Origin: an uncultured Flavobacteriales bacterium
GTDB taxonomy: Bacteria > Bacteroidota > Bacteroidia > Flavobacteriales > BACL11
Length of the DNA: 64,000 nt
Assembly (NCBI GenBank): GCA_913046315.1
Contig: CAJWRW010000002.1
Coordinates: forward strand, 9,246 to 73,245
Direction of reading: 5' to 3'
Shown here: one piece after another, positions 16,327 through 58,910 of the stretch
Position numbering within the stretch: the stretch's first letter is position 1
Layout of the letters: every line of letters begins with the position of its first letter
Notes under the pieces: generated by a model
Told to the model about the DNA's origin: nothing
The model's input: only the letters and a program-made list of their open reading frames with translations
Databases searched by the model: none
Position numbers and translations under genes: made by a program

Positions 16327-16421
16327 AAAAGAAGAATTTGAACGGCTAAGATAGAAATAAAATTTATTATAAAAAGTCGATTTTCTGAATATTTTGTTCG
16401 TATAATTGGTAAAATTGTAGT

Positions 16422-17126: not shown

Positions 17127-17161
17127 TATCACACAAAAAAACAAGTTTAGATGCATAAGAA

Positions 17162-18451: not shown

Positions 18452-18575
18452 GCTTAATTTTTTTGAAAGTCAAAGATACTCAAATAGAGCAATTATTTAT
18501 AATGATAATGAATAAGAAATTCTATTGCTTATTTCGGCAATGAACACTACCTTTGCTTTTGAAAAACTAGGGAAA

Positions 18576-38543: not shown

Positions 38544-41027
38544 ATGAAATTGTTGATTAGAATAATAAAATTTGGAGTACTTTTTGCAGCTATTTTAGCC
38601 CTTATTGGCATTGCTTTAAGCTTACTATATGGTGAGAAAATTGAGCAATATATTCTTAAAAACATTAGACAAAAATCGCTAACCGAAATTGCTGTAAAAG
38701 ATGTCAACTTTTCGGTTTTTGAAAATTTTCCCTATGCATCTATAAAACTAACAGATGTATTGATCTTAGCAACTGAAGCTAATCAAAACGACACTTTATT
38801 GCATGTAAATCAGGGGTATTTACAATTTAATATCTTCAATTTAATAAGTAAAAAGAGAAAGCTAAGTAAAATAGTATTAATAGATAGCGAGTTAAATATA
38901 AAATACGATAAAGAGGGAAATCCAAACTTCAAAATATTTAAGCAATCAGATCAGCAAGACGAAAAAATACAATTCCATCAGATTTACTTTAGTAACTGCT
39001 TTATCAGTTATTTACATCAGCAAAATAAAATAGATATAAAAGGGAAAACAGATAAAGTATTATTACAATTTAACGAGAATCAGAAAACTAACTTTTTGGT
39101 AGAGGGCAATTTATTTATACAAAATTTATGCGTTGGAAAAACCGATTATATTCACAAAAAACAATCAAAAGTAGATGCGGAATTTGTTATTAATGATTCA
39201 GCCTTTTACATCAAAAATTCGAATATTTCTATAGAAGATGTTAACTTTAATTTGGATGGGAACATTCAAAATAGAGAATCAGAATTAAACATTAAAGTAA
39301 AAAATCAGCAACTTAAAAGCGTAATGTTACATACACCAGAAAAATTCAAAAGCATCTACAAAGCATTTACACTAGACGGAATCCTGAATTGTCATGGCAC
39401 CATAAAAGGAGTAATAAGCAAAACATCTAATCCGCATTTTAATATGGATTTTGACTTTTCAAATGCAAACTTCAATTTAAAAGAAAATCATTTTCATCTT
39501 TCTGATTTGCAGCTTAATGGAAATATCAATAATGGGAGGGCTAACAATTTTGAACAAACACTTATAAAAGTACAAAATTGTTCTGCAAAAACTCGTAAAG
39601 GCGCTCTAAGTGGCTCCTTTCAACTGAAGAATTTGAATCATTACTATCTTACAACTGATATCAATTCAACTTTAGATTTGGCTGAGGTCAATCACTTATT
39701 CAAGAGGACTCCATTTTTGAACATGAAGGGCAAGCTAATAGCCAATACTAAATATAGTGGTAATTTCGCATTTTCTTCCAAAATGAAAAACTATTTTCTT
39801 TTGGGCAATCACCTCTCAGAAGTGCAACTGAAAGATGTAGAATTTCTCTACAAAAAATTCCCTCTGCTTTTCAGCCTTCCTAATTTGAAAGGGCAAATTA
39901 TTAATGACACATTGAAACTGGAAAATAGTCTGTTTACCATAGCCGATAGTGATTTCAAATTCAATGGTAGAATTTCGAAATTTATTTCTTATTTGCTACA
40001 GGAATCTCCAAAAATTTCTATAGAAGGTGAGATGGAATCTATATATGTAAAATTTGATGAATTGATGAGCATTAAAAATATGAATGCTGAGCAAAAAAAA
40101 TCGATTTCTACACTTCCAAATTGGCTAGAAATAGATGTACAAACAACAATTGATCAGCTTAGTTATCAGTATTTTATAGCAGAACAAATTCAAGCGGGAA
40201 TTGAATACAGCAATTTTACGCTCAAAGCAAAAAAAGTAAAAATGAATACCCTTAATGGGCAAATTACAGGTGAAGCTAAATTTTATGAGCGCCCGTATAA
40301 TTATCTAAAATTAGTCACCGCAGCACATTTAGAAAAAATAAACATCCGCAATTTGTTTACTGGATTTCAGAATTTTGGGCAAGAATTCATCCAAGCCAAA
40401 CACTTAAAAGGAGAAGGAACTGCTGACATTCAGTTAAAATCGAGCTGGACTCCAGGGCTTAAATTTGATCGTGATAAATTGCAACTCAATTCTCACTTGA
40501 TTATAGAAAAAGGGGAGCTTATTTCTTTTGCCCCATTACTTAGCCTGTCATCATATGTTAGTGTAGATGAGCTAAAAGATGTCAAATTTTCCACCTTAGA
40601 AAACACCATAAAGATTGGGAATAATAATATTAATATTCCTGCAATGGAGATTAAATCATCTGCACTCTCGCTTTTTATTTCGGGAACACATAGTTTTAAT
40701 AACGAGATCGATTATCAAATAAAACTATTACTTTCGGAGCTGATATCAAAAAGAGCAAGAAAAAGAAATACCAATTTAGACAAACAATTGTTTGTTGAAG
40801 ATGATGGGCTAGGAAAAACAACATTGTACTTAAAAATGGATGGCACTGTAGATGATCCTAACATTTATTTTGATAAAATAAGTATTAAGGAAAAAATAAA
40901 AACAGAGATAAAAAAAGAAAAAGAAGAAATTAAAAAGATTGTAAAGGAAGATTTGTTTAATCAAAAAACTGATAGCACAAAAAAACAGGAAACAACAGAA
41001 GTTATTTTAGAATGGGACGATGAGTAA
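38544..41027 (+). CDS. AsmA-like large envelope protein
   Basis: A single N-terminal TM anchor, then about 780 aa of beta-rich repetitive sequence and a Lys/Glu-rich tail. The architecture fits the AsmA/TamB-like family. No catalytic motif. Confidence 0.65.
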   Translation: MKLLIRIIKFGVLFAAILALIGIALSLLYGEKIEQYILKNIRQKSLTEIAVKDVNFSVFENFPYASIKLTDVLILATEANQNDTLLHVNQGYLQFNIFNLISKKRKLSKIVLIDSELNIKYDKEGNPNFKIFKQSDQQDEKIQFHQIYFSNCFISYLHQQNKIDIKGKTDKVLLQFNENQKTNFLVEGNLFIQNLCVGKTDYIHKKQSKVDAEFVINDSAFYIKNSNISIEDVNFNLDGNIQNRESELNIKVKNQQLKSVMLHTPEKFKSIYKAFTLDGILNCHGTIKGVISKTSNPHFNMDFDFSNANFNLKENHFHLSDLQLNGNINNGRANNFEQTLIKVQNCSAKTRKGALSGSFQLKNLNHYYLTTDINSTLDLAEVNHLFKRTPFLNMKGKLIANTKYSGNFAFSSKMKNYFLLGNHLSEVQLKDVEFLYKKFPLLFSLPNLKGQIINDTLKLENSLFTIADSDFKFNGRISKFISYLLQESPKISIEGEMESIYVKFDELMSIKNMNAEQKKSISTLPNWLEIDVQTTIDQLSYQYFIAEQIQAGIEYSNFTLKAKKVKMNTLNGQITGEAKFYERPYNYLKLVTAAHLEKINIRNLFTGFQNFGQEFIQAKHLKGEGTADIQLKSSWTPGLKFDRDKLQLNSHLIIEKGELISFAPLLSLSSYVSVDELKDVKFSTLENTIKIGNNNINIPAMEIKSSALSLFISGTHSFNNEIDYQIKLLLSELISKRARKRNTNLDKQLFVEDDGLGKTTLYLKMDGTVDDPNIYFDKISIKEKIKTEIKKEKEEIKKIVKEDLFNQKTDSTKKQETTEVILEWDDE

Positions 41028-42183: not shown

Positions 42184-43020
42184 GCCACAACTGCCTAAAT
42201 TATTTTTATCCAAATAATCCTGATGATATTCTTCTGCTCTAAAAAACTTTTGCACTTTTTCAATTTGTGTAACAATAGGATTTTCAAACTGCTGTTGAGC
42301 TGCTGCTTTTGATTTTTCTGCCTGCTGCTGCTGTAAATCAGAAGAGTAAAAAATTACTGAACGATATTGCGTACCAACATCAGCTCCTTGTCGATTTAAT
42401 GTCGTAGGATTATGATTCTCCCAAAAGATATTTAGCAAAGCTTGATAAGTAATTACTTTAGGATTAAAGTAAAGATGTACCACCTCAGCATGATTTGTAT
42501 TTCCCTTACAAATGTCTTTGTAAGTTGGATTTTCAGTATTGCCTCCCATATAGCCTGAATGCGCAAGATAAACCCCTTTGGTCATTTTAAAAAGCTTTTC
42601 AACATGCCAAAAACAGCCTCCACCAAAAGTAGCTACTTCCAAATGCGCGTGCGGAATAAATCGGATACTTAATGAATTTACACAATGCCTTGTGTCCTTT
42701 TTTGTAATCTGCTCTCCATGGAAAACATGGCCTAAATGCCCATCACATTTAGCACAACATATTTCTGTTCTTATTCTACCCCCACTTAAATCTTCATATC
42801 TATTAATTGCACCAGCAATCTCATCATCAAAAGATGGCCAGCCACATCCAGAATCAAACTTGCAATTGGACTCATATAGTGGGCTTTCACAAGCTCTACA
42901 GACAAAAATTCCTACTTCAAAAAAATCATTGTATTTACCTGTAAAAGGCGCTTCAGTTCCTTTGTCTTTCAGAATGTGTTTTTCTGCTGTACTTAATTTT
43001 GAAAAGTAATCAGTTGCCAT
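42178..43020 (-). CDS. msrAB: bifunctional methionine sulfoxide reductase MsrB-MsrA
   Basis: N-terminal SelR 'GCGWPSF' and 'CxxC' pairs. C-terminal MsrA 'FGGGCFW'. Start taken at 'MATDYFSKL' (ATG 43020). Confidence 0.9.
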   Translation of the reverse strand: MATDYFSKLSTAEKHILKDKGTEAPFTGKYNDFFEVGIFVCRACESPLYESNCKFDSGCGWPSFDDEIAGAINRYEDLSGGRIRTEICCAKCDGHLGHVFHGEQITKKDTRHCVNSLSIRFIPHAHLEVATFGGGCFWHVEKLFKMTKGVYLAHSGYMGGNTENPTYKDICKGNTNHAEVVHLYFNPKVITYQALLNIFWENHNPTTLNRQGADVGTQYRSVIFYSSDLQQQQAEKSKAAAQQQFENPIVTQIEKVQKFFRAEEYHQDYLDKNNLGSCGL

Positions 43021-43044
43021 AATTTGTTTTGACAAAAATAAAAA

Positions 43045-44217
43045 ATGTATCTCATTTTTTATATTAGCAAAACTTTTTATACAATTATTTTGGCAGGCAT
43101 TTACATACATATCCCTTACTGCAAAAAGGCTTGCTCTTATTGTAATTTTCATTTTAGCACAAATCGAAAAGACAAATCTGAAGTGTTAAAATGCATCAAT
43201 ATGGAGCTTGAAATGCGAGAAGCATATTTGAAAAATAAATCAATTGACACCATTTATTTTGGAGGAGGGACACCCTCCATATTAAATAAAAGTGAGATCA
43301 ATCACATTTTACAAACCATCCTCAACAACTATAAGGTAAAAGAAACTGCAGAAATTACATTAGAGTGTAATCCTGACGATTTGGATGAACAAACTTTAAT
43401 CCATCTAAAAGAATCCGGAATAAATCGTTTGAGTATTGGCGTGCAGTCATTTGATGAGCGTGATTTGAAACTGATGAATCGGTCTCATAGTGCAAAACAA
43501 TCAGAAAATTGCTTAAAATTAGCCAAGCAAATAGGATTTGAAAACATTACTATTGATTTGATTTATGGTTTGCCAAACCAAAGTTTATCTGATTGGGAAA
43601 ACAATCTGCAAAAAATGTTTGCATTCAACACCTCTCATTTTTCAGCTTACACACTTACCATAGAAGACAAAACAGCTTTAAAGCATTTGGTAGAAAAAAA
43701 GAAAGTTATTTTACCAAAGGAGCAAATAGTATTAGCACAGTTTAAGGTTTTAATGCAATCGGCTAAAACAAATGGATATGTGCATTATGAGATTTCAAAT
43801 TTTGCAAAAGAAGGTTGCTTTTCCAAACACAATTCCTCTTATTGGAAAAGCAAAAATTATTTAGGAATTGGGCCTTCTGCACATTCCTATAATGGAAAAA
43901 GTAGAAGTTGGAATATTTCCTCCAATAAAAAATATATTCATAATTTAATCGAAGGGAAAGGATGTTTTCAACAGGAAAGACTATCAAAAAAGACACGATA
44001 CAATGAATATGTTTTCACATCAATCAGGACGATTTGGGGTGTAAATACAAAAACAATCAAAACCCAATTCGGAATTAAATACCAATCATATTTTTTGAAA
44101 GAAGTGCAAAAATGGGAACAACAAAAACGGATTAAGAAATCAAAAGAAATTTATACCCTCACCAATTCAGGAAAATTTATTAGCGATAGTATTACAGCTG
44201 ACTTGTTTATGATTTAG
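43045..44217 (+). CDS. hemW: radical SAM heme chaperone HemW (HemN-like)
   Basis: 'GIYIHIPYCKKACSYCNF' CxxxCxxC radical-SAM motif. The true start may be the in-frame TTG at 43090. Confidence 0.9.
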   Translation: MYLIFYISKTFYTIILAGIYIHIPYCKKACSYCNFHFSTNRKDKSEVLKCINMELEMREAYLKNKSIDTIYFGGGTPSILNKSEINHILQTILNNYKVKETAEITLECNPDDLDEQTLIHLKESGINRLSIGVQSFDERDLKLMNRSHSAKQSENCLKLAKQIGFENITIDLIYGLPNQSLSDWENNLQKMFAFNTSHFSAYTLTIEDKTALKHLVEKKKVILPKEQIVLAQFKVLMQSAKTNGYVHYEISNFAKEGCFSKHNSSYWKSKNYLGIGPSAHSYNGKSRSWNISSNKKYIHNLIEGKGCFQQERLSKKTRYNEYVFTSIRTIWGVNTKTIKTQFGIKYQSYFLKEVQKWEQQKRIKKSKEIYTLTNSGKFISDSITADLFMI

Positions 44218-45082
44218 TGCAGTTTCCTTTTTCATCAATAGTGATAACAGGAACGGTTGTCCAATCAATTTTTTTAGCAGCTGTTTGAATATCAATGAAA
44301 TCAAAATCGTAAATCAGTTGTTTGAGCTTTATATAAGCAGTATCCAAATTATAATAAGACTTGAACCTTCTTTTCAATGAAAGCCCGTCCAATGTAGGTT
44401 GTTTGGAATCAAAATCTCTTGGGTGAAAATAGGTCATTGTATAGTCTGATTTTTCAATTAATTTTCTAATTATCCGATAAGGGAAAAATCTAAAATAACC
44501 TCCTCCTGTTGCCGTAAATCGAGCGCCTAAAAAGGTATTCGTACTCATAGGAAACTCTTTAATAGTATGGCTATTATATTTTATAATTGAAGGGCTACTT
44601 TCTTTAAAATTTAAAAAACCTCCATCTTCCCTTCTTGCAGGAAAAATGGAAGCGTCATATTCAATTCCTAACTCATTAAGCACATCAAAGACCCAAACAT
44701 TTGTTGTTTTTACAGAAAAACCAGGCGCCCTATATGAGATGACTTTTTCTCCAATAATATCTTCTAATCTGCTAATGCAAACTTGTAAATCTTCTTTAAA
44801 TTCTTTTTGGCTTTGGGTGTAAACTACTTTGTGCATATCGGAATGAGCAGCTACCTCAAATCCAAAACTGTGTATTTTTTTTATAATTTCAGGATGCTTG
44901 CGTGCTATGTAGCCCAAACAAAAGAAGGTTGCTTTTATATTATTATTAAGCAGTAATTCAAAAATCCTATCCATTCCTTTATGAATACGAACCTCATAAT
45001 TGTTCCATTTATCCAAAATATCATCAGGATATTTTTGCAAAATATGAAACCAATCTTCTATGTCAAATGTTAGGATTCTCAT
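44207..45082 (-). CDS. polysaccharide deacetylase with DUF3473-type C-terminal domain
   Basis: 'MRILTFDIEDWFH' N-terminus, 'ATFFCLG', 'EVAAHSDMH', and C-terminal 'GGGYFRFFPY' as in DUF3473/exopolysaccharide-locus deacetylases. Confidence 0.8.
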   Translation of the reverse strand: MRILTFDIEDWFHILQKYPDDILDKWNNYEVRIHKGMDRIFELLLNNNIKATFFCLGYIARKHPEIIKKIHSFGFEVAAHSDMHKVVYTQSQKEFKEDLQVCISRLEDIIGEKVISYRAPGFSVKTTNVWVFDVLNELGIEYDASIFPARREDGGFLNFKESSPSIIKYNSHTIKEFPMSTNTFLGARFTATGGGYFRFFPYRIIRKLIEKSDYTMTYFHPRDFDSKQPTLDGLSLKRRFKSYYNLDTAYIKLKQLIYDFDFIDIQTAAKKIDWTTVPVITIDEKGNCTKS

Positions 45083-45693
45083 TTTTTAAAATAAGCAGCA
45101 AATTCTTGATGTGTGTTACACTTAATAAGGTGATTGTCGTTCACAATAATAATTTTTTTTGCCATTTTTGCAAGTTCAAAATCTGAAAAACTATCTGTAT
45201 AAAGTGTGTCAATTTCTTGAATGTCTTGAGCTTTTAATAATCGGACTTTTCCTTCTTTATAGCAATTGAAAAACAATCCTTGAGCAACATCATCCTCATA
45301 CTTAATGGTAGAACCCATCACATTAATAAAATCAGGAAAAATAGGGCGAATATAATCCTGAAAAGATGCACTTAGCACAAAGTAGTTGGCATCTTCAGCA
45401 AAATCTAAATTTGAATAAAGTGAATTGAAGTCAATGGTTTTGTGGTAGTTTTCAAATTTGAATTTTAATTGCTCCTTACTCAAAGGGCTTAAAAATAACT
45501 GAATGCCCTTTGATTTCAATCTTTCGTTTTTAATAAGGTCTATTTTTGCTAAAAGCATTAAAAAGCAATAGTAAATAATTTTAAGATAGCAGCAAAGATT
45601 TTTGTTGGCAGCAAATAGGAAAAAACCAAACAAAGTATCTTTTTTTGTTAGGGTTTTGTCAAAATCAAATACTATAATTTTTCGTTTTTTCAT
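45079..45693 (-). CDS. HAD-superfamily hydrolase (subfamily IB-like phosphatase)
   Basis: Motif I 'IIVFDFDKTLT'. Helical cap region. C-terminal 'YTDSFSD' Asp motif. Confidence 0.75.
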   Translation of the reverse strand: MKKRKIIVFDFDKTLTKKDTLFGFFLFAANKNLCCYLKIIYYCFLMLLAKIDLIKNERLKSKGIQLFLSPLSKEQLKFKFENYHKTIDFNSLYSNLDFAEDANYFVLSASFQDYIRPIFPDFINVMGSTIKYEDDVAQGLFFNCYKEGKVRLLKAQDIQEIDTLYTDSFSDFELAKMAKKIIIVNDNHLIKCNTHQEFAAYFKK

Positions 45694-46820
45694 TGCTTAA
45701 ATAATCTGAGAAGTTTAGCCACATAAAAATAGTTCAGTAAAATAAAAGGCAAACTTCTAAAACATGACGAATAAGTAAAATTGATATGACAGCAATCCTT
45801 ATTAGTGCTAAAAAAGCGGAAAGGATTTGATGGATTCTTTAAGAAATAAAATAAATCGTAAGGGAAAATCCACCTTATGTTATAATTGCTTATAGCACTA
45901 TTTTCAATTTTGGATTGCCCAACACATAAATCAATATATTTTACCAAAAAATTAGCGCTACAATATTCAGACAACAAAATCGAACCCCACATTCTTGGGT
46001 TGATTTCAATTACTTTATATTTATTGTCTCTTTCGTCAAAAATAAACTCAATCATTAATAGTCCATTCCAATTTAAAGCCTTAGTCATTTGTTCTCCCGC
46101 CTTTTTTATATTTTGTTTTTCACTTGCTTTGGAAAATACGGTAACCCCTCCACTTTCAGGGAATGTACGAATTCTTTGATGCGAATAAAAGGACAAAATT
46201 TCTCCATCCTTACAAAGAAAAAAACCGCCTTCAACATTTTTACTATTTGGCAATCTTTCTTGCACAAGATTTTTTTCAAAATCAATCTTTTCGCCTTTCA
46301 ACTCGTTTTGGTTATCAATATAATAAACGCCTTTTGACCCAGATCCCTTTTTAGGTTTTACAATAATTGGAAATTGAAAAGTATTATTTTCAAACCCCTC
46401 AGTACTTACAAATTTTGGGCAAGGAATTCTGTTTTCTTCACAAAATAGATTTAGCAAAGCTTTATCTGTAGAGCGCTCAAAAACTTCTTTTTCAGGCAGC
46501 AGAAAGAAAAGATTTTTAGGGCTATTTTCATAAGAAAGAAAGTTGTAAAAAAGCAATGTTGTATCTTCTTCAACAGGTAAATAAATCACTTTTTCTTCTG
46601 GAAATTTTTTAAGAATTTGATTAAGGTCAGCATTGAAGTTCTCATCTTTTCTTAGCAAAAATAAATTTGATGAATGATATGAAAGAGTACAATTTAACTT
46701 ATTAAAAACATTCAAATCCTCCGTTAACAATAGCACATCTTTATTATCGTAATGTCGGTACAGAATATTGACGACATCAAAGGTTTTTCTTAAAAATATG
46801 TCTGTTATCAATATCTTCAT
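45690..46820 (-). CDS. ATP-grasp carboxylate-amine ligase-like enzyme
   Basis: 'FPIIVKPKKGSGSKGVYYI', 'LVQERL', 'LLMIEFIFDERDNKYKVIEINPRMWGS'. Start taken at 'MKILITD', which forms an ATGA overlap with the sulfotransferase stop. Confidence 0.75.
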   Translation of the reverse strand: MKILITDIFLRKTFDVVNILYRHYDNKDVLLLTEDLNVFNKLNCTLSYHSSNLFLLRKDENFNADLNQILKKFPEEKVIYLPVEEDTTLLFYNFLSYENSPKNLFFLLPEKEVFERSTDKALLNLFCEENRIPCPKFVSTEGFENNTFQFPIIVKPKKGSGSKGVYYIDNQNELKGEKIDFEKNLVQERLPNSKNVEGGFFLCKDGEILSFYSHQRIRTFPESGGVTVFSKASEKQNIKKAGEQMTKALNWNGLLMIEFIFDERDNKYKVIEINPRMWGSILLSEYCSANFLVKYIDLCVGQSKIENSAISNYNIRWIFPYDLFYFLKNPSNPFRFFSTNKDCCHINFTYSSCFRSLPFILLNYFYVAKLLRLFKQ

Positions 46821-47701
46821 TTCCAGTGAGATAGATCTTTTTCTGTCAGTTTTTCTAACTTGCAAATATCCTCATAAAAGTAGGAGGCTAAATATAATTC
46901 ATCCTCTTTTAAAAGAGTTTTCCGTTCTAAAGTTTTTTCAGCTACTTTTTCTAATAAAAAGCGGGGAATAATTAGTTTCATTAGCTCTCTAATAAAAGTT
47001 GAGTAGAAATTATTTCTGCTTAGTAAAAATCTCGAAAAAATATTATTAGGCATTCCAGACAGATTGTGTTGCAAACTACTATTGACTTTAAACTGCTCAT
47101 CTACATTCAAAAAAGCAAAAATTTCCTTCAGTACCTTATTGGTATTGGCATGCAGATCCTCCTGTAATATAATTTGAACATTGCTAAATTTATGCTGAAA
47201 AGTACGTACTTGTTCATAGTACATTCCACAACTTTTATAGCCCCAAATATAGTCCCAATTATTTTCTAATCTTTTTTCTTCTGCCTTCAATCCATTTAAG
47301 AAGCTTAAACTTTCTCGACTGTCTCTTTTCAAATACATATATGCAGAAAAAGCCCTTTTTGCAGGATTTCTCAGCACTATAATGATGGGAATATCTCCCA
47401 ATTTTTCTTTAATCAATTTAGCTGTTTTTTTATGAAAATACAAGCTATCCGGACTTGCCTCTCCAACTCTTTTGTTTTCAATTTTTGAAAACAATTTTTG
47501 GTATTTTTCAAAGGATTTCACAGCATATTTATCTACCGAAACATCTCCAACTCCATTATGCGGAAAAATTTCGCTGTTTGAGCTAAAAAATTTAGGCTCC
47601 TTGAGTTTAGGAAAAGATATTTCCGGATGTTGTTTGAGATAATAATATAATGCAGTTGTACCGCATTTTGCTGCTCCAATAATTAAAAAGTTTGGTAGCA
47701 T
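46817..47701 (-). CDS. PAPS-dependent sulfotransferase (carbohydrate sulfotransferase-like)
   Basis: 5'-PSB loop 'FLIIGAAKCGTTALY' and 3'-PB motif 'IIVLRNPAKRAFSAY'. Confidence 0.85.
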   Translation of the reverse strand: MLPNFLIIGAAKCGTTALYYYLKQHPEISFPKLKEPKFFSSNSEIFPHNGVGDVSVDKYAVKSFEKYQKLFSKIENKRVGEASPDSLYFHKKTAKLIKEKLGDIPIIIVLRNPAKRAFSAYMYLKRDSRESLSFLNGLKAEEKRLENNWDYIWGYKSCGMYYEQVRTFQHKFSNVQIILQEDLHANTNKVLKEIFAFLNVDEQFKVNSSLQHNLSGMPNNIFSRFLLSRNNFYSTFIRELMKLIIPRFLLEKVAEKTLERKTLLKEDELYLASYFYEDICKLEKLTEKDLSHWK

Positions 47702-48831
47702 TATTTTATGATTTTGTTAAAGTAAGCAATGTATCTTTCACCAATAATCTCCCAATTATAGTGCCGCTTAATAAGCTCATAAACACCTTCTTTCATATTA
47801 CTAAAATCGGCTGCTTCAATCTTTGTTATTATTTTTGCAATTTCCTCTTCCGATTTAAAATACAATCCATTTGCACCAACAACTGCTTTATTAAATTCAT
47901 TCTTATGACAAATGCATAAGTTTTTAGATGCCATTGCTTCTAAAAGGGAAGGATTAGTTCCTCCAACTGCATGCCCATGAAAGTAGGAAAAAGCATTTGC
48001 TCTTACCACAGACAATTCATATTTATCATAAATTCCATTCAAAAATATAACCTCTTCAGATTGCGATGCTCTTAATAGATTTATGTAATTTGTTTCTTGC
48101 AAATTCCCAACAATTACAAGCGGATATTTAGCATCACTTTTTTTATAGCCTCCAATAATTATATCAACATTGTTTTCTGGCTCCAGGCGGCTTACTACTA
48201 GATGGTATTCACGCTTTTTCAAGTTATATTTGTCTAAAATAGCATTAATTTTATCTGATTCTTGCCCTACAGCTTCATTTAGATTGGCGCCATACTCTAT
48301 AGTTTCAATTCTTTTTTTTCTTTTGAATTTTTCTCTAAACACTTTTTCAATTCCTTTCGAATCAGCCAGGATATAGGGGCTTAATTTTGCCGAAAGATAA
48401 AACATAAGTTTTAAGACTTTTTTACCAAAATTACTCCATTTCAGCCTTTCCCATCCTACCCCATCAGGGTTAGTGATGTATGCTTTTTGAAATAGTATTG
48501 GTACAAAAAGAAAAAAAGCATTGCCACAACCACAACTATAAATGACGTCTGCTTTCCATGATAAAAATAAGGAATCAAGATAAAATAGAAAAGGCTGTTT
48601 TTGCTTTGAAAATTTAGAATATTTTATTTCTATTTCATTAAACGATAGTAGATTATTAGTTTGTTGTTTTTGGATTTTATCGCCAACTACTAAAATGTCA
48701 AAATCAGTATTTTTTTTAATTTCCTTTGTGAGTTCTTCTGCAAATGTTTCAAAACCTCCATGTAAGGCGGGAATTCCCCTAGAACCAATAAAGGCTATTT
48801 TTCTTCTTTTTTCGCGCATATTTTTCACCAA
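47701..48831 (-). CDS. glycosyltransferase family 4 with DUF1972-type N-terminal domain
   Basis: 'IAFIGSRGIPALHGGFETFAEEL' (DUF1972-like) and the C-terminal GT4 'HAVGGTNPSLLEAMA' E-x7-E region. Confidence 0.85.
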   Translation of the reverse strand: MVKNMREKRRKIAFIGSRGIPALHGGFETFAEELTKEIKKNTDFDILVVGDKIQKQQTNNLLSFNEIEIKYSKFSKQKQPFLFYLDSLFLSWKADVIYSCGCGNAFFLFVPILFQKAYITNPDGVGWERLKWSNFGKKVLKLMFYLSAKLSPYILADSKGIEKVFREKFKRKKRIETIEYGANLNEAVGQESDKINAILDKYNLKKREYHLVVSRLEPENNVDIIIGGYKKSDAKYPLVIVGNLQETNYINLLRASQSEEVIFLNGIYDKYELSVVRANAFSYFHGHAVGGTNPSLLEAMASKNLCICHKNEFNKAVVGANGLYFKSEEEIAKIITKIEAADFSNMKEGVYELIKRHYNWEIIGERYIAYFNKIIK

Positions 48832-49016
48832 ATCTTTTCGCTTAATTTTGCGAAAATAGACAAAAAAAACCAGCTAAAAATAGATGTAAAAATCCAAATG
48901 CATTTTCTATCTCAACAAGTAAAAAATTACAACAAAAATATTCTAAATCAGATTTTAAGGAGATATTTAATTTATTTGTATCTTGCAAAACTTTAATAAA
49001 GGAATAATTTACGCTT

Positions 49017-52000
49017 ATGAATAGAAAGATTATTATAATTTGTTTTAGCCTAATTGTAGGGATGTTTACTGCGGTTAAGACCAATGCACAATGTGATGTG
49101 TTGCTAGACACTGCAAATATTACTCAAGTAACATGTCCAGGGGGGTCAGATGGATTTGCTAATTTAACTCAAACGCCATACATCAATTATTCATGGAACA
49201 ATTTAACTAATGGGCAAAATTATGGTAGTGGACCTGCAATTACATCCCTAAGTACGCTACCTGCCGGATTGTATGTTGTTGTTGGCACACAACCTTTTTC
49301 TGGACAATGCCCTGCTTCAACGGTTTCTGATACATTTGAAATATTAGAACCTATTCTTACTAATAATTTAAACCCTCCGCTTGCTTGTGACATTTCTAAT
49401 TGTAATGTTACCTCAACTATAAATATTAGCCAGCAATTTCCTGGCTATACCTATCAGCTTTCTATGAACGGTGGAGCGGCACAATCCTTACCTGCAGTTA
49501 ATTCTGCGTTATGTGCAGGGAATCAAATATATGTTTTAAATTATACTAATTGCGCCAATAATATTCCTGGATTTACATATATAGGAAGTTATGACACAAG
49601 TTGTTATTATGCCTACAACTCTACAACAAGCTGGACTACAGCAGAATCTTTATGTAATGCAAATGGAGGAAGCCTAGTAGCTATAAACTCACAAACAGAA
49701 TCGGATTCTTTAAATGTATTTTTAAATAATAACACTGGCACAAATCAACACTGGATTAATTTAATTGATGGAAATTCAAATTGGGGGAATGGACAACCTT
49801 TAATTTTTACTAACTATGATGGTTCGTATGTACCAAATGAATATCCTTATATGTTTTTGCAGAATAATGGAAATTGGGATAATTCACCTAACAATGGGAG
49901 TCAATCAAATACAGGTGTTTATCCATTAATGGAAGTTACTCAGATTCAAAATAATTGTTCAGCCGACACCTTCAATATTGCAGGAGGAAACTTAAGCGCA
50001 ACAATCAATTTAACAGATACGATTCAGTGCTTTGGGGAGTATGCTACTATCCAAGTGGTTTCTCAAGGTGGGGGAGGCTGGTACAATTATGATTTAGATT
50101 ATGAAATATTTGGAAATTGGTATCAACTAAGCACACAAAATACATACGATACAGCAACATTTACAACTTTGCCTGCAAATAATTACAGGGTAACAGTAAC
50201 GGATACTGCTGGAGGCTGCACTGCACAAGCATTCATAAATATTAATCAGCCTTTAAACATTATTCCAATGGTGGATATTTCTAAACCTTCTTTGTGTTTT
50301 GGAGATAGTGTAGCAGAAATAAGTATGAGTATTATGGGTGGAATACCACCATTTTCTGTGACGGTAAATGGGGCCCCAAGTATTCCTGTACCTTTTCCTG
50401 CTAATGCAATTACTTTTAGTAACTTACCAGCAGGTGCCTATCAATTTATTATAACGGATGATAATGGTTGTGCAAAAACTAGAAATAGAACGATTATTTC
50501 TCCACCACTTTTGGTACCAAATTCAATTATTCAATCCAACTATAATGGGTATGACATTTCTTGTTTTGGAGGAAATGATGGGGCAATTTTAGCGCAAGTA
50601 AATTCTGGCGGAACACCTGGATATAAATATGCTTTGGATGCTGGACTATATGGGTCCAATCCTTATTTTCAAAATTTAATTTCAGGTACTTATGTGGTTA
50701 ATTATTTAGATACTAATGGATGTGAAGCATCTGATACGCTTACACTACAAGATCCGCCAGATTTAGCAGGAGTCATCTCAGTTACTTCTGCAGTTTCATG
50801 TAATAGTGTTTGTGATGGCCAAATAGCGTTTAATGTAGATCCTAACCTAACAGGAACACCAACATACCAATATTCTTTAGATGGCGGATCTTTTCAGACT
50901 TCAAACACTTTTGGGGGACTTTGTGGAGATATTGATTATAATATCACTGTTCAAGATTTAAATGGATGTACTTATACAGATTCTCTATTTCTTTCACAGC
51001 CTGATTCTTTAGATGTCTATGTGAGTATTCTCAGTAATTACAATGGTTGGGGGGTGAGTTGTTTTGGTGCAACTGATGGCGCGATTTCAGTTGACTCTGT
51101 AAATGGAGGAACGCCACTTTATACTTATTCCATTGATGGTGGCCCATTTGGCTCTTCTACTTTCTTTACAGGATTAGCAGGAGGGTTACATACAATTAAT
51201 GTAAAAGATGCTAGCGGATGTACTCAATTAGTAAACATTACCATTTCTGAACCAGCTGCTTACACAATAAGCCTATCCACTAATGTAAATTATAATGGTT
51301 TTGATGTGGCCTGTAATGGTGATTGCAATGGCAGCATTAATGTTACTTCTACAGGCGGGGTTCCTTCTTATTTATACTCTCTAAATAATGGTGCCTCTCA
51401 AGCTTCTGCCAATTTTAATAACCAATGTGCGAATAATTTACTTAAAGTGGACGCAGTTGACGCGAATGGTTGTCCAGCTCAGGATAGTATTTTACTTGTT
51501 GAACCTCCAGTACTAAGCTTACAAATGGATTCCGTAATGGAAAATTGTGGGGCTGGAGATGGGCAAGCAATTGCTATAGTAGCAGGTGGGGTCAGTCCTT
51601 ATTTCTATCTTTGGACTGATGGACAAACCACAAGTTCCGCTACAAACCTTTCGACAGGAACCTATACAGTTATTGTAACAGACACTAATGGCTGTTCTGT
51701 TACAGATGATGTGTTTGTTCCAGGAACAGATATGATACTATCCTCTTCTACAACAGCTGTTTCTTGTAATGCAGGAAGTGATGGAACTGCAACAGTAAGT
51801 GTAACAGGGTCTTTTGCTAGCCCACTAACATACCAGTGGAATGATCCACTTTTTCAATCTACTCCAACTGCAACAGGATTAGCAGCAGGAAACTATATTG
51901 TTACAGTTACTGATGCTAATGGATGTTCTGAAAGAGATACTGTAAATGTATCTGAACCAACAATCGTTGATTTAGCTTTAGATTCTTCAAATTCGTTATT

Positions 52001-55000
52001 TACTGTTCCTTGTTATGGGGATTCTTTAGGAATTGTTTCTGTTTCGGCAACGGGAGGAACAGGTCCAGGTACTTATTGGTTTTATATTGACGCGGCGAAT
52101 CCACAGAATGATTCTACATTTTATGGATTGCCAGCAGGATCGTATTGGATTTTTGTAAATGATGCAAACGGATGTACAGATAGTATTGATGTGCAAATTA
52201 CTGAGCCTTCAGAAATCACATTTTCACTAAGTGCTAATGATGTGCTTTGTAATGGAGGTGCTTCAGGTACAGCTAAAGTAGCTACAATTTCAGCAGGTAC
52301 ACCACCTTATTCATATGCTTGGAGTAATGGAGCGACTACAGATAGTATTGGTGGCTTGTCTTCAGGCATCTATTGGATTACAGTTTCAGATGTAAATGGA
52401 TGTACTATTTATCCTCCTGATACAGTATTAATTGGTGAACCTACACTTCTTACAACTAATGCGTCTTCTACTAATTCAATGTGTGGAGGAACGGTAGCGA
52501 ATGGTAGCGCAACTGTTCTGGCAAGTGGAGGAACAAATCCTTACACTTATTTTTGGAACACAGGGGCAACAACAGCAAGTATTAATTTATTGGTTTCAGC
52601 AACATATACTGTAATTGTTACAGATGCTAATGGTTGTATGGCTTATGATACAATTGTGGTACAAGCAGGACCTCAACCAATTTTATCGGTTGCAATACAA
52701 AATGTAAGTTGCTTTGGTGCAAATGATGGCATGATAACACCTTCTGCAACAGGAGGAACAACTCCATACCAATTCAGTATTAATGGAGGAAATACTTGGC
52801 AGAATAATGGCATTCAGTACGGACCTTCAGGGCAAGCTTCATATTTTGTTACCGTAAGAGATTCTAATGGTTGTGTCGAGAGCGATTCGGTATTTGTGTT
52901 AGAGCCCGCTCTATTAGTTGTTGATTCATTTACAATAAATCAGGTGAGTTGTTATGGTGGATCTGACGGTTCAATTACAGTAAATCATTCAGGAGGCACG
53001 CCAGGTTTTTCATACAATTGGTCAAACCTACAAACTGCTCAAACTGCTACAGGACTGAGTATAGGCACTTTTTCAGTAATTGTCACTGATACTAATGGTT
53101 GTGTGGACACTTCAACATCAGTTACGATGACTCAGCCAGATAGTTTGTATATTACTTCTATCACTTCTACAGATGTGCTTTGTAATGGTGGTAATGATGG
53201 GACAGCAACAGTTACTGCGTCCGGAGGTGTAACACCTTATAGTTACTTGTGGTCGAATGGCGCATTAACACAAACAGTAAATATGTCTGCAGGAAATTAT
53301 ACTGTAGATGTAACAGACGCTAATGGTTGTATGGTTTCATCAGCTATTACAGTAAATGAGCCCGTAGCATTAAATATAGATTCTTTCGCTATGGATTCTG
53401 TGTTCTGTTTTGGATTTAGTGATGGAAGCGCAACAGCTTATGTTTCAGGAGGAGTTACCCCTTACGTATACTTTTGGGATAATGGAGATAATACGGCTTT
53501 TGCAGATAGCTTAAATGCAGGATATCATTCAGTACTCATCACAGATTTTAACAACTGTACTTATATAGATTCTATTGAAGTTCTTGAGCCTGCTGCTTCT
53601 ATTTCCATAGACTCACTTATAGTAAGCCAGATTACATGTAAAGACGCAAGTAATGGTTCAATAGTTATACTGGCAACAGGAGGCATCTCTTCATATACTT
53701 ATTCTAAAGATGGTGGGAACACTTATCAAACGGCTATTGGTTTTATAGGCTTGTCGCCAAACACATACAATATAGTAGTTAAAGATAATAAAGGATGTAC
53801 AGCATCTACTTTACAAACTATCACTGAACCAGATTCATTACTTATTGACTCAGTAGTTTATCATGATGTAAGCTGTAACAGCTATAATAATGGTTATATT
53901 CAATCTATCAATGTAAGCGGGGGAACACAGCCTTATATGTACTCAGTAAATGGATGGGGACCACATCCTAATTATGTTTATTTTAATGGATATGCGCCAG
54001 GCCTTTATACAGTAGAAGTGATTGATGCAAATAATTGTGTTGTAGCAGATATTATTACAATCGATGAGCCGCAAACTTTGAATACTTCAATTATAACTTC
54101 TAATTATAATGGTTATGAAATCAGATGTAATGGAGACAGTACAGGTTGGATCTCGGTGGCAATAAATGGGGGTGTATCGCCATATCTAAAAACTTGGATT
54201 AATCCCCAAGGTGACACCGTGCAATCATCAGGTTCTATTTTGGTTGATAGCTTAATAGCCGGATTATATAATCTGGTTGTGTTAGATGCAAATAACTGTA
54301 TGAGCTCAGAATTTATTACGCTTGCAGAGCCGACCCCACTTCAACACAATATCGTTACTACTCATGTAACATGTCATAACTGGACAAATGGTAGTATTAC
54401 AGATTCCGTTTTTGGAGGCGTTCCAGGTTACACCTACATGTGGAATACTGGAGACACCACTTATACGATTAATAATTTGCCAATTGGATCTTATTCTATT
54501 ACAGTAACAGATGAGAATAATTGTCAATCTACAGCCGGAACTATTGTAAACGACAATAATAAATTGGTGGCTACAGTAAGCACTATTCAGGATGTAAGCT
54601 GTTATGGTTATTGTGATGGCTATATAGAGGTTACTATTACAGGAGGTATGCCATTTTACAATTCAACAGGAAATCCAATTTACAATAATATTTGGGACGA
54701 TCCGCTTTCGCAAATCAGGCCAACTTCTATAGGTTTGTGTGCTGACGAGATTAGTCTTTCTACTACATATAAAGACAGCATTACAGACGCTATTGGCTGT
54801 CAGGTGGTAGTGAGTGGCACCATCACACAACCGTCAGCAGTTGAGGTTTCAGCAACAATTGCAAATGAGGTTTCTTGTTTCTCAGGAAATGATGGCGTTA
54901 TACAAGCAGCCGCAACTGGAGGGCTACCGTCTTACACTTACTTATGGAACAATCAGCAAAATGGAAATACGATAAGTAATTTGGTAACTGGAAGTTATGT

Positions 55001-56276
55001 AGTTGTTGCAACAGATGCTAATGGATGTATGGATACCACAGAAATCTTCTTAGGAGAGCCAACTAATTTAAGCCTCACTCTTAGTTCAGTAAATGTGAGT
55101 TGCTATGGAGATAATAATGGTTCTATTACAGTAAACCCATCTGGAGGAACGCCAATTTCTCCATCAGGGACGTATACTTATTTGTGGACTGATGGACAAA
55201 CTAATCAAACAGCAACTTCACTTGCTCCTGGCATTTATGAAGTAGTGGTTACGGATGCTAATGGATGTGCAATTACTTCTTCAAATGTACTGATTACGCA
55301 ACCTACAAGCGACCTCATTGTTACTACTGATTCCACTGATGAGACATGTGTTATGGATGATGGAACTGCAATTGCTAATGTCTTTGGAGGAACAACTCCT
55401 TATTCTTATGCTTGGAACAATGGACAAACAAGCCAAACAATAGCCTCTTTATCACCAGGAAACTATATAGTAGATGTTACAGATGCTAATGGATGTATTT
55501 TGTCTGCTTCAACAGTTGTAAATGCTTTTGATGCCATTTTCTTACCAAACTTTACTGCACAATTTACTGATACTATTTGTTTGGGAGATAATGTAACAAT
55601 TAGCGTGGTAGATAATCCGAATTTTACTTATAATTGGAGTTCAGGGCATTTAACGCCTTCCATTACAGTAAGCCCTGACGCCCCAAGAAAGGATTATTTA
55701 CTTACAGTTGTAGATTTGAACAATTGCCCATTATCTTCCTTTAATGTTACGGCAACTGTTTGGACAACTCAATTGCCAAGTAATCCAGTTGCTACTCCAA
55801 ACTCAATTAAATCAGGCGATGAAGTAGAGCTTAACGCAACATCATCTAATAATTATCCTTTCTATTTATGGCTTAATGAAAATGCTAATCTTATTTCTAA
55901 TTCTAAATCTACTTATGTATATCCTGACGTTACCACTACTTATTATATAATGGTTCAAGATGCACAAGGCTGTCAAGGTTATGATTCTGTAAGAGTTGTC
56001 GTTGGGGTTTATGTGTTTGACGGCATTTCTCCCAATGGTGATGGCTATAATGATTTTTGGGAAATAGAAGATATTGACAGATATCCGGATGCTGTGATTC
56101 AAGTATATAATAGATGGGGTTCTTTGCTATTTAGCGCTACAGGAGACAACTATAATAGTAATAAGTGGGATGGAACGCATAATGGTGAAATCCTTCCTGT
56201 AGGGACTTACTACTATATAATTAACTTAAATAATGATTCTGATCCGCAAAGCGGACCAATAACTATTGTTAGATAA
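49017..56276 (+). CDS. giant SprB-repeat cell-surface adhesin with C-type-lectin-like domain and type-B T9SS CTD
   Basis: Signal peptide 'MNRKIIIICFSLIVGMFTAVKTNAQ'. More than 20 modules of pattern C.G..DG...V...GG..PY.Y.W......T...L..G.Y.V.V.D.NGC. C-terminal 'GISPNGDGYNDFWEI...VYNRWG...GTYYY' gliding-motility-associated CTD. Confidence 0.9.
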   Translation: MNRKIIIICFSLIVGMFTAVKTNAQCDVLLDTANITQVTCPGGSDGFANLTQTPYINYSWNNLTNGQNYGSGPAITSLSTLPAGLYVVVGTQPFSGQCPASTVSDTFEILEPILTNNLNPPLACDISNCNVTSTINISQQFPGYTYQLSMNGGAAQSLPAVNSALCAGNQIYVLNYTNCANNIPGFTYIGSYDTSCYYAYNSTTSWTTAESLCNANGGSLVAINSQTESDSLNVFLNNNTGTNQHWINLIDGNSNWGNGQPLIFTNYDGSYVPNEYPYMFLQNNGNWDNSPNNGSQSNTGVYPLMEVTQIQNNCSADTFNIAGGNLSATINLTDTIQCFGEYATIQVVSQGGGGWYNYDLDYEIFGNWYQLSTQNTYDTATFTTLPANNYRVTVTDTAGGCTAQAFININQPLNIIPMVDISKPSLCFGDSVAEISMSIMGGIPPFSVTVNGAPSIPVPFPANAITFSNLPAGAYQFIITDDNGCAKTRNRTIISPPLLVPNSIIQSNYNGYDISCFGGNDGAILAQVNSGGTPGYKYALDAGLYGSNPYFQNLISGTYVVNYLDTNGCEASDTLTLQDPPDLAGVISVTSAVSCNSVCDGQIAFNVDPNLTGTPTYQYSLDGGSFQTSNTFGGLCGDIDYNITVQDLNGCTYTDSLFLSQPDSLDVYVSILSNYNGWGVSCFGATDGAISVDSVNGGTPLYTYSIDGGPFGSSTFFTGLAGGLHTINVKDASGCTQLVNITISEPAAYTISLSTNVNYNGFDVACNGDCNGSINVTSTGGVPSYLYSLNNGASQASANFNNQCANNLLKVDAVDANGCPAQDSILLVEPPVLSLQMDSVMENCGAGDGQAIAIVAGGVSPYFYLWTDGQTTSSATNLSTGTYTVIVTDTNGCSVTDDVFVPGTDMILSSSTTAVSCNAGSDGTATVSVTGSFASPLTYQWNDPLFQSTPTATGLAAGNYIVTVTDANGCSERDTVNVSEPTIVDLALDSSNSLFTVPCYGDSLGIVSVSATGGTGPGTYWFYIDAANPQNDSTFYGLPAGSYWIFVNDANGCTDSIDVQITEPSEITFSLSANDVLCNGGASGTAKVATISAGTPPYSYAWSNGATTDSIGGLSSGIYWITVSDVNGCTIYPPDTVLIGEPTLLTTNASSTNSMCGGTVANGSATVLASGGTNPYTYFWNTGATTASINLLVSATYTVIVTDANGCMAYDTIVVQAGPQPILSVAIQNVSCFGANDGMITPSATGGTTPYQFSINGGNTWQNNGIQYGPSGQASYFVTVRDSNGCVESDSVFVLEPALLVVDSFTINQVSCYGGSDGSITVNHSGGTPGFSYNWSNLQTAQTATGLSIGTFSVIVTDTNGCVDTSTSVTMTQPDSLYITSITSTDVLCNGGNDGTATVTASGGVTPYSYLWSNGALTQTVNMSAGNYTVDVTDANGCMVSSAITVNEPVALNIDSFAMDSVFCFGFSDGSATAYVSGGVTPYVYFWDNGDNTAFADSLNAGYHSVLITDFNNCTYIDSIEVLEPAASISIDSLIVSQITCKDASNGSIVILATGGISSYTYSKDGGNTYQTAIGFIGLSPNTYNIVVKDNKGCTASTLQTITEPDSLLIDSVVYHDVSCNSYNNGYIQSINVSGGTQPYMYSVNGWGPHPNYVYFNGYAPGLYTVEVIDANNCVVADIITIDEPQTLNTSIITSNYNGYEIRCNGDSTGWISVAINGGVSPYLKTWINPQGDTVQSSGSILVDSLIAGLYNLVVLDANNCMSSEFITLAEPTPLQHNIVTTHVTCHNWTNGSITDSVFGGVPGYTYMWNTGDTTYTINNLPIGSYSITVTDENNCQSTAGTIVNDNNKLVATVSTIQDVSCYGYCDGYIEVTITGGMPFYNSTGNPIYNNIWDDPLSQIRPTSIGLCADEISLSTTYKDSITDAIGCQVVVSGTITQPSAVEVSATIANEVSCFSGNDGVIQAAATGGLPSYTYLWNNQQNGNTISNLVTGSYVVVATDANGCMDTTEIFLGEPTNLSLTLSSVNVSCYGDNNGSITVNPSGGTPISPSGTYTYLWTDGQTNQTATSLAPGIYEVVVTDANGCAITSSNVLITQPTSDLIVTTDSTDETCVMDDGTAIANVFGGTTPYSYAWNNGQTSQTIASLSPGNYIVDVTDANGCILSASTVVNAFDAIFLPNFTAQFTDTICLGDNVTISVVDNPNFTYNWSSGHLTPSITVSPDAPRKDYLLTVVDLNNCPLSSFNVTATVWTTQLPSNPVATPNSIKSGDEVELNATSSNNYPFYLWLNENANLISNSKSTYVYPDVTTTYYIMVQDAQGCQGYDSVRVVVGVYVFDGISPNGDGYNDFWEIEDIDRYPDAVIQVYNRWGSLLFSATGDNYNSNKWDGTHNGEILPVGTYYYIINLNNDSDPQSGPITIVR
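49572..49934 (+). other. C-type-lectin-like domain inside the adhesin (aa ~186-306)
   Basis: 'SWTTAESLCNANGGSLVAINSQTESDSLNVFL....HWINLID....W.NGQPLIFTNY' follows the W..A...C...G..L..I.S..E..F......WIGL pattern of CTLDs. The C-terminal Cys pair is not evident. Confidence 0.55.
49960..55470 (+). repeat. array of roughly 22-24 SprB-type coding modules (about 75-80 aa each)
   Basis: Recurrent 'D(A/T)NGC' module ends (about 23 by my manual count) and recurrent 15-nt 'gatgctaatggatgt' strings. These are protein-level repeats, diverged at the DNA level. Confidence 0.8.
56004..56273 (+). other. type-B T9SS C-terminal domain (gliding motility-associated CTD)
   Basis: 'VFDGISPNGDGYNDFWEIEDIDRYPDAVIQVYNRWGSLLF...GTYYYIINL' at the extreme C-terminus. 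Confidence 0.85.
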
Positions 56277-56284
56277 AAAAGATT

Positions 56285-58905: not shown

Positions 58906-58910
58906 AGTTG

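Follow-up and report, generated by a model that had tools for sequence, protein, structure and literature searches.

A five-gene operon of an uncultured Flavobacteriales bacterium that may tailor a surface polysaccharide, with an ATP-grasp/HAD pair in the place of a FemAB-like gene

The 64-kb stretch of DNA analysed here (the window; 64,000 nucleotides of contig CAJWRW010000002.1, from an uncultured Flavobacteriales bacterium) carries five open reading frames (ORFs) on the minus strand at 44207-48831, and the ORF translations confirmed all of them at these coordinates. In the order 5' to 3', they encode a DUF1972/GT4 glycosyltransferase (GT), a sulfotransferase (ST) that uses 3'-phosphoadenosine-5'-phosphosulfate (PAPS), an ATP-grasp ligase, an HAD-IB phosphatase and a DUF3473/CE4 deacetylase. 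The main novelty of the arrangement is that the ATP-grasp and HAD genes lie exactly where sister genomes carry a gene for a tRNA-dependent aminoacyl transferase of the FemAB/VimA type. The five genes are as follows.

47701..48819, minus strand: glycosyltransferase of GT4 fold with N-terminal DUF1972 (Cps2T/WchF-like), 372 aa; Pfam DUF1972 3.7e-17, Glycos_transf_1 3.4e-09
46817..47701, minus strand: PAPS-dependent sulfotransferase of the heparan (NDST/3-OST) sequence type, 294 aa; Pfam Sulfotransfer_1 7.5e-14
45690..46820, minus strand: ATP-grasp carboxylate-amine ligase, 376 aa; Pfam ATP-grasp_3 6e-12
45079..45693, minus strand: HAD-IB phosphatase of phosphoserine-phosphatase-like fold, 204 aa; Pfam HAD 3.6e-12
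44207..45082, minus strand: CE4 polysaccharide N-deacetylase with C-terminal DUF3473 (TIGR03006/XrtA-type), 291 aa; Pfam DUF3473 1.7e-34, Polysacc_deac_1 4.9e-16

Direct reading of the sequence gave CATTA on the plus strand at the GT/ST junction (47699-47703), which is TAATG on the coding strand, and TCAT, an ATGA overlap on the coding strand, at the ST/ATP-grasp (46817-46820), ATP-grasp/HAD (45690-45693) and HAD/deacetylase (45079-45082) junctions. For the GT, ATG 48819 is the most likely start and not the TTG 48831 of the ORF list, because the L085 orthologue has 372 aa (L001-L148 are the labels of the surveyed loci); the ATP-grasp gene, whose mechanical ORF opens at TTG 46865, was assigned the start ATG 46820 because the homologue P0121 also has 376 aa, with 96% identity over 100% of the length. 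The overlapping frames, junctions and motifs quoted in a first-pass annotation of the window were all present, and Pfam confirmed every domain call made there. It is highly probable that 44207-48831 is a real five-enzyme operon, and the view that the five genes form a co-transcribed sugar-tailoring operon, put forward in that annotation, is supported. A defence-system reading was rejected, because a PADLOC scan of the five proteins gave no match.

The GT shares the DUF1972 plus GT1 architecture of the streptococcal Cps2T/WchF rhamnosyltransferases and scores 215.7 bits against the NCBIfam Cps2T beta-1,4-rhamnosyltransferase model (NF046071), which is far under the equivalog cutoff of 500; its motif GGTNPSLLEAMA, including E294, is kept in 19/19 orthologues. 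Members of the Cps2T/WchF-like DUF1972 group act on lipid-linked sugars. The likeness extends to gene context in one related locus, L099, where the module has rmlACD and a WecA-like initiating transferase with it, whereas no rml gene lies in the window (statements of gene absence from the window, here and below, cover ORFs of at least 120 aa, five of which have no Pfam match). The solved structure nearest to the ST is PDB 3RNL (1.5e-52, 182 bits), an uncharacterised structural-genomics protein. The nearest characterised relatives in a sequence search of the PDB were indeed heparan enzymes, as had been supposed, namely the NDST1 sulfotransferase domain (6.2e-05) and 3-OST-3 (4.5e-04), although at 23-26 bits this similarity is very remote and that to 3RNL is much closer. 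Residues 9-16 of the ST, GAAKCGTT, align with GPQKTGTT of NDST1 as the 5'-phosphosulfate-binding loop, and RNPAKRAFS aligns with NPADRAYS as the 3'-phosphate-binding motif. Moreover, E35 aligns with the glutamates of the NDST1 motif 'EEIQFF', at a position which we take to be that of the NDST1 catalytic base, E642. Residues G14, T16, E35, R111 and S119 are invariant in 23/23 module orthologues, so that a loss of the PAPS-binding residues was not found; the catalytic lysine, K12, is present in 18/23.

The ATP-grasp protein also matches PRK12767 ('carbamoyl phosphate synthase-like') and represents a small subfamily, for which a search of 1.84 billion proteins at E <= 1e-30 gave 297 representative clusters; residues K155, E258, E272, N274 and R276 are invariant in the homologue alignment. 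Its AF2 (AlphaFold2) model reached a pLDDT of 87 and a pTM of 0.85, and the Foldseek search with it placed the L-amino-acid ligase RizA first (4wd3, 4e-14), followed by PurK, PylC, the Bacillus L-amino-acid ligase 3vot and Ddl. The HAD protein matches TIGR01490 and TIGR01488, both below cutoff, and its motifs I-IV (D10, D12, S110, K149, D167, D171) do not vary in 30 sequences; its AF2 model (pLDDT 95) retrieved first 3fvv, an uncharacterised Bordetella protein (TM 0.72), then SerB/PSP/PSPH, and then cN-III (5'-nucleotidase III). By sequence search of the PDB, the ATP-grasp gave generic matches only, while the GT and the HAD gave none, in the case of the HAD even with a profile at E <= 10. The deacetylase matches TIGR03006 (XrtA/PEP-CTERM polysaccharide deacetylase) at 1.1e-71 and 241.1 bits, under the curated cutoff of 276.2, and the alignment joins residues 4-266 of 291 to profile positions 3-268 of 272. 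The CE4 catalytic and metal-binding residues (D7, E9, H80, H84, R118, P120, H220, D223) are kept in 38/38 orthologues, and by its sequence the enzyme appears to fall into one broad family with the deacetylases that are found as partners of VimA-like FemAB genes.

Two surveys were made, one anchored on the ST in GTDB species representatives and the other anchored on the ATP-grasp in JGI metagenomes together with individual-protein look-ups; loci in both were scored by phmmer with the window proteins as queries (L003 is from Gracilimonas, L004 from Roseivirga, L005 from a Crocinitomicaceae metagenome-assembled genome (MAG), L007 from a Campylobacteraceae MAG and L088 from Ulvibacterium). The gene order of the window recurs on independent contigs (L085, L086, L087, L090, L097, L005/L099 and L103), with ATP-grasp identity falling from 96% to ~49%, and the arrangement is therefore not a product of chance. 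Among 29 ATP-grasp homologues with at least 2.3 kb of downstream sequence, the HAD gene adjoins in 26 and is followed by DUF3473 in 25, and among the 33 with at least 2.3 kb upstream, the ST was found there in 8 and the DUF1972 GT likewise in 8. The ATP-grasp and HAD genes are thus the most tightly linked, followed by the trio with DUF3473, and the five-gene form is the least widespread. ST homologues of at least ~45% identity (L001-L011) all occur in the arrangement GT(DUF1972)-ST-[X]-DUF3473, in which X is a variable slot, the exception being L009, with no GT detected beside the ST; the ST travels with the DUF1972 GT and DUF3473 rather than with ATP-grasp/HAD. More distant ST homologues (Thermotogota, Cyanobacteria, Nitrospirota and others) lack all of the module partners. 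Among the distant homologues, those of 35-44% identity (L016, L047, L048, L053, L054, L063, L075 and others) are often arranged as two to four paralogues in tandem; they come from Cyanobacteria, Rubrobacter, MAGs of Bifidobacterium, Brocadia and others, and have no GT and deacetylase partners beside them. The five genes, whose common travel the first-pass annotation had left to a survey of gene neighbourhoods, do move together within two lineages, to which the full form is confined; elsewhere ATP-grasp-HAD-DUF3473 occurs without ST or GT, and GT-ST-DUF3473 without ATP-grasp/HAD. These linkage counts rule out the idea that the five genes are one obligate unit.

The variable slot between the ST and the deacetylase was found in three states.

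Slot X empty: L004, L007-L011
Slot X with a FemAB-like gene: L001, L002, L003, L006
Slot X with ATP-grasp and HAD genes: window, L005/L099, L085-L087, L090, L097, L103

The FemAB-like genes of the slot match TIGR03019 over the full length at 134 and 157 bits (cutoff 260), and VimA of Porphyromonas gingivalis matches the same family (Veith et al., PMC7468200). The FemAB form L001 occupies the same chromosomal position as the window operon, with SprB and PorP genes upstream and a convergent hemW downstream, and in neighbour-joining trees of the GT, the ST and DUF3473 it clusters with ATP-grasp/HAD forms (window, L085, L087 and L090), being nested inside them in the GT tree. Because L001 shares both position and tree grouping with these forms, the most economical explanation is an in-place swap, in a single lineage, of the cassette that separates ST from DUF3473. 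The occurrence of a FemAB-like gene in the exact slot of ATP-grasp/HAD, at a syntenic position, argues that both devices act on the same amine; it argues for, but does not prove, equivalent jobs. In a neighbour-joining tree of the ST, those encoded beside an acylation device lie apart from those of the minimal modules L007-L011, which could reflect different acceptors or phylogeny alone.

The slot exchange brings the operon close to two described systems. In the model for P. gingivalis VimE and VimA, the 2-N-acetyl group of a sugar is removed and serine or glycine is then transferred to the resulting amine (PMC7468200). The Wbp/Vim system of P. gingivalis and Tannerella forsythia resembles the present operon in that a CE4 deacetylase, an amide-installing device and a GT4 are adjacent, and the vim genes of P. 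gingivalis also lie apart from the main polysaccharide locus. This likeness is drawn from family models with scores below the equivalog cutoffs, and the differences are that the window has ATP-grasp and HAD genes instead of a FemAB/VimA gene, that its operon adds a PAPS-dependent ST and that the window has no Wbp-like genes. The XrtA/PEP-CTERM pair TIGR03006/TIGR03019 is the second parallel, as the deacetylase is full-length to TIGR03006 and the sister locus L001 has a TIGR03019-type FemAB in the slot. The statement of the first-pass annotation that the parts are not homologous to known pathways is therefore not supported, given the TIGR03006-like deacetylase, the slot replacement of the TIGR03019 (VimA) family and the Cps2T/WchF-like GT.

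In other Bacteroidota, related modules lie in canonical polysaccharide loci. L099 is a complete five-gene module, with an operon sequence equal to that of L005, surrounded by rmlA-rmlC-rmlD, Wzx, two more STs, an unknown 411-aa protein and a GT4, and followed by a WecA/MraY-family Glycos_transf_4 gene and a Wzc-like protein. In L088, GT(DUF1972)-ATP-grasp-HAD-DUF3473 lies amid Wzx, Wzy_C, Wzz and three STs, and in L004, GT-ST-DUF3473 is accompanied by Wza, Wzx, Wzy_C and three more STs; L003 and L010 are similar, and the context of L145 and L146 is likewise canonical. No PAPS-synthesis gene was found within 10 kb of the Pfam-annotated related loci. The WecA/MraY-family gene is the next one detected after DUF3473 in eight loci (L003, L005, L006, L008-L011 and L099), which suggests that the deacetylated residue is the initiating N-acetylhexosamine (HexNAc) or one near it; in the lineage of the window this gene is absent after DUF3473 and the convergent hemW is found instead. 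Because related modules sit in loci with Wzx/Wzy/Wza, the window copy is best understood as a detached piece of ordinary surface-polysaccharide synthesis. We assign a probability of about 0.55 to the reading that the operon, as a detached cassette, serves assembly and tailoring in a Wzx/Wzy-type pathway for a capsule or O-antigen-like surface polysaccharide; the broader statement that it serves a surface polysaccharide is probable. The first-pass remark that the region does not look like a capsule or O-antigen locus remains correct for the window copy, in which wzx/wzy/wzz, an initiating transferase and nucleotide-sugar genes are indeed missing, and does not hold for the related modules in L099, L004, L088, L003 and L010. 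The embedding in canonical loci that was named there as counting against its reading was found, even for the five-gene form, while no glycan structure has been assigned to those loci.

These contexts bear directly on an alternative that had been proposed for the operon, the synthesis of a soluble conjugate resembling mycothiol, bacillithiol or a compatible solute, in which the GT would glycosylate a small phosphorylated acceptor, the HAD would take off the phosphate and the CE4 enzyme an acetyl group, and the ATP-grasp would add an amino acid and the ST sulfate. The enzyme set formally mirrors the textbook series MshA, MshA2, MshB and MshC, the window operon is isolated in a housekeeping setting (SUF, purine synthesis, succinate dehydrogenase, ribonucleotide reductase, metG, lepA and msrAB), and a stand-alone GT-ST-DUF3473 operon exists in L007. 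However, related modules, including the identical five-gene form, lie within Wzx/Wzy/Wza loci beside a WecA-like initiating transferase, and a small-molecule product is for this reason extremely unlikely. The membership of the GT in the Cps2T/WchF-like DUF1972 group points the same way, the deacetylase is of CE4/TIGR03006 type and not an LmbE-type MshB/BshB, the ligase is an ATP-grasp and not an MshC/BshC-like enzyme, and exchange in a variable slot would be typical of surface-antigen loci.

For the surface-polysaccharide cassette, the best-supported logic is that an amino sugar is deacetylated and then decorated again. In the following scheme we infer which substrates are used, in what order the steps occur, which way round the amide bond is formed and where sulfate is attached. 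The enzymes would work at the cytoplasmic face, and their target would be either the first sugars of a repeat unit linked to undecaprenyl diphosphate or a nucleotide-sugar precursor of these. The Cps2T-like DUF1972 GT would add a second sugar, for which a 6-deoxyhexose such as rhamnose is plausible, to a lipid-linked HexNAc that a WecA-like enzyme encoded elsewhere in the genome may provide, and the DUF3473/CE4 enzyme would then remove the N-acetyl group and expose the amine. The ATP-grasp would form an amide with a phosphorylated small-molecule acid, from which the phosphoserine-phosphatase-like HAD would take off the phosphate, so that the pair would be a tRNA-free stand-in for the FemAB/VimA-type aminoacyl transferase of the sister genomes; finally, the heparan-type ST would move sulfate from PAPS to the tailored sugar unit. 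That the ligase acylates the amine made by the deacetylase is a tentative proposal, with chances slightly under even. O-phospho-L-serine, the leading guess for the co-substrate, is attractive because it is a central metabolite, which calls for no extra genes, and because the HAD resembles phosphoserine phosphatases, though this particular choice is rather unlikely to be the right one.

The closest functional precedent for a ligase and a phosphatase acting in succession lies in the HS:2 capsule of Campylobacter jejuni, in which the C-terminal ATP-dependent amidoligase of Cj1438 (Cj1438C) joins a phosphorylated co-substrate and the HAD Cj1435 then dephosphorylates the product (PMC11800397). The comparison is one of gene pairing and reaction logic: in both cases an ATP-dependent amide ligase is paired with an HAD phosphatase in a polysaccharide pathway. 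In C. jejuni the phospho-amine comes from the pyridoxal-phosphate (PLP) enzymes Cj1436 and Cj1437, whereas the window pair lacks these and is linked to a deacetylase. The precedent suggests a different scheme, in which the ATP-grasp activates the C6 carboxylate of a uronic acid and couples a phosphorylated amine (phosphoserine or phosphoethanolamine), the HAD dephosphorylates the product, and DUF3473 independently frees an amine which the ST N-sulfates in the manner of NDST. Cj1438C/Cj1435 is the only tested ATP-grasp plus HAD pair in a polysaccharide pathway, the window-type pair persists without DUF3473 in L147, L148 and L004, and UDP-sugar dehydrogenase genes are present in some related loci (L003, L145). 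The sulfation half of the scheme agrees with the direct adjacency of ST and DUF3473 in the minimal modules L004 and L007-L011, and with NDST1 being the best characterised PDB match of the ST, E35 included. At the same time, the FemAB-like gene, a type that transfers aminoacyl groups onto amines, fills the exact ATP-grasp/HAD slot, neither a PLP enzyme for a phospho-amine nor a uronic-acid gene was found in the operon or the window, the 3-OST O-sulfotransferases match the ST nearly as well as NDST does, and the 25/29 loci with DUF3473 after ATP-grasp-HAD show a linkage needless for independent functions. The uronamide scheme is accordingly considered unlikely.

The heparan parallel also allows a narrower proposal for the ST. 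As in NDST, sulfotransferase and N-deacetylase go together genetically, and in the minimal modules their genes are direct neighbours, although here the two activities are encoded by separate genes with, in the window, two further genes between them. GT-ST-DUF3473 might then be a split bacterial NDST, with the ST as an N-sulfotransferase acting on the amine freed by the deacetylase or on the alpha-amine of an amino acid installed by the ligase, and ATP-grasp/HAD as a tRNA-independent replacement of the VimA type; we regard this combination as improbable. If N-sulfation did take place, it would mean that there are bacterial surface glycans with N-sulfated amino sugars.

Several observations weigh against the proposed cassette of deacetylation and renewed acylation. 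The putative roles of the module enzymes are drawn from sequences and predicted structures; the Foldseek matches are remote (TM 0.5-0.63 for the ATP-grasp and 0.5-0.7 overall) and do not fix the substrates, the TIGR03006, TIGR03019 and Cps2T scores are all under the equivalog cutoffs, and the trees behind the slot exchange are simple neighbour-joining trees without support values. The Cj1438C/Cj1435 pair amidates the carboxylate of a uronic acid and does not acylate a sugar amine. Distant phyla keep ATP-grasp-HAD without an adjacent DUF3473 (L147, L148), and in Roseivirga (L004) the pair lies 6.5 kb away from GT-ST-DUF3473; the ligase is therefore not strictly dependent on the deacetylase. Finally, no flippase, polymerase, chain-length regulator, initiating transferase, nucleotide-sugar gene or PAPS-synthesis gene was found in the 64-kb window.

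The neighbourhood of the operon raised the further possibility of a role in the T9SS (type IX secretion system). Divergently from the operon, across 197 bp, lie genes for a 2419-aa SprB-repeat adhesin and then PorP/SprF (window 49017-57211). Both adjoin the operon divergently also in L087 and L090, where the contig extends far enough; on the short contig of L085 only SprB is seen, and in L001 SprB/PorP lie near the operon with two extra genes between. The product could accordingly be a sulfated 'linking sugar' of the Vim kind, N-aminoacylated and with a free alpha-amine, to which, in marine Flavobacteriales, the PorU sortase would join cargo with a type A C-terminal domain (CTD). Such an anchor, which would be a special case of the cassette reading, has in its favour a family-level likeness to the VimE/VimA/VimF logic and the existence of type A CTD cargo in the organism, a Por_Secre_tail protein at window 16422-17126. 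However, the neighbouring cargo carries a type B CTD (CHU_C) and has its own PorP/SprF, and type B CTD cargo is anchored via PorP-like proteins and not via A-LPS (PMC9143113); the SprB adjacency was for this reason discarded as evidence of a T9SS role. The adjacency is moreover confined to one lineage and may be inherited synteny, no T9SS genes were detected near the modules of other taxa, which lie in ordinary capsule/O-antigen loci, and Wbp-pathway genes are missing from the window, so that we hold the anchor to be very unlikely. The adhesin itself combines a C-type lectin domain at aa 203-284 with the CHU_C type B T9SS signal.

All five protein families, the deacetylase/FemAB logic (PMC7468200) and sulfated marine capsules (PMC11641403) were already known. 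In the loci for sulfated capsules of Vibrio sp. KMM 8419 and other marine bacteria, ST genes are embedded together with cysDNC for PAPS and an ABC transporter (PMC11641403), and the placement of ST genes within polysaccharide biosynthesis loci is the likeness to the related modules; the differences are the cysDNC and ABC transporter genes of the Vibrio sp. KMM 8419 type and the fact that the text of PMC11641403 names neither a deacetylase nor an ATP-grasp. In the literature searched, no description was found of the ATP-grasp-HAD-DUF3473 trio, of its occupation of a FemAB slot or of the GT(DUF1972)-ST-DUF3473 core, and nothing relevant on amino-acid-ligating ATP-grasp enzymes in polysaccharide loci. 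If the slot exchange does reflect functional equivalence, there would be two unrelated routes to the re-acylation of a de-N-acetylated surface sugar, one through the tRNA-dependent FemAB/VimA type and one through ATP-grasp plus phosphatase, and an uncharacterised ATP-grasp subfamily and its partner HAD, both recurrent in capsule-type loci of marine Flavobacteriia, would gain a role. The GT-ST-deacetylase core could mark sulfated, amine-modified bacterial glycans in genomes. Characterised bacterial polysaccharide sulfotransferases are few (PMC11641403), and those of the module are candidates for glycosaminoglycan engineering. Variable glycan decoration at a fixed genomic position may also point to selection for diversity in abundant marine bacteria, with phages or grazers as examples of the selecting agents.

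Additionally, the surveys brought out a second recurrent marine architecture, in which a ~705-aa ADH_N+GFO_IDH_MocA fusion, a ~525-aa heparinase II/III-like protein and a GT4, in this order, precede ATP-grasp-HAD-DUF3473.

L145, 5109-12568: second architecture
L146, 5105-12568: second architecture
L108, L111, L112, L115: second architecture, complete
L113, L123, L127, L129: second architecture, partial

In L145, upstream of the trio (3431-5112), there is an extra HAD with a class I/II aminotransferase-fold (Aminotran_1_2) gene, a combination that recalls the PLP enzymes Cj1436/Cj1437 which make the phospho-amines for Cj1438C. L088 has at 16923-18574 a second, unrelated ATP-grasp with a PylC-like N domain, directly before a Metallophos phosphatase, so that the pairing of ATP-grasp and phosphatase recurs in this polysaccharide locus with different protein families. 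A GH5 'Cellulase' gene lies between the DUF1972 GT and the ST in L010 (8853-9992) and after DUF3473 in L088 (12916-14040).

At its 3' end, the deacetylase gene in the window, stop codon included, shares 11 nt with the convergent hemW-like radical-SAM gene. At the other end lies the presumed promoter region.

48820..49016, no strand assigned: divergent intergenic region, presumed to hold the promoter, 197 bp between the GT (ATG 48819) and the SprB-like gene

A pattern scan of this region found a single exact -7 box of the Bacteroidota type, TATTTTTG, at 48940-48933 of the minus strand, which would fit the putative promoter. An Rfam scan of 43000-50000 at E <= 0.1 gave no element, and matches in a sigma-70 promoter and terminator scan were not above the level of shuffled sequence. 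The G+C content is ~30-38% across the window, and the operon is not distinct in this respect. Four large ORFs (306-827 aa) had no Pfam match at E <= 1e-5 (window 909-2804, 14872-16449, 27664-28584 and 38544-41027); synteny between the window and L087 takes in the 827-aa ORF, the histidine kinase that follows this ORF, and msrAB. Beyond SprB/PorP, at window 57522-62027, there is a second glycan-related gene group.

57522-58298, plus strand: SAM methyltransferase
58288-58905, minus strand: second, shorter CE4 polysaccharide deacetylase
58911-62027, minus strand: TMEM260-like protein resembling protein O-mannosyltransferases, 1038 aa

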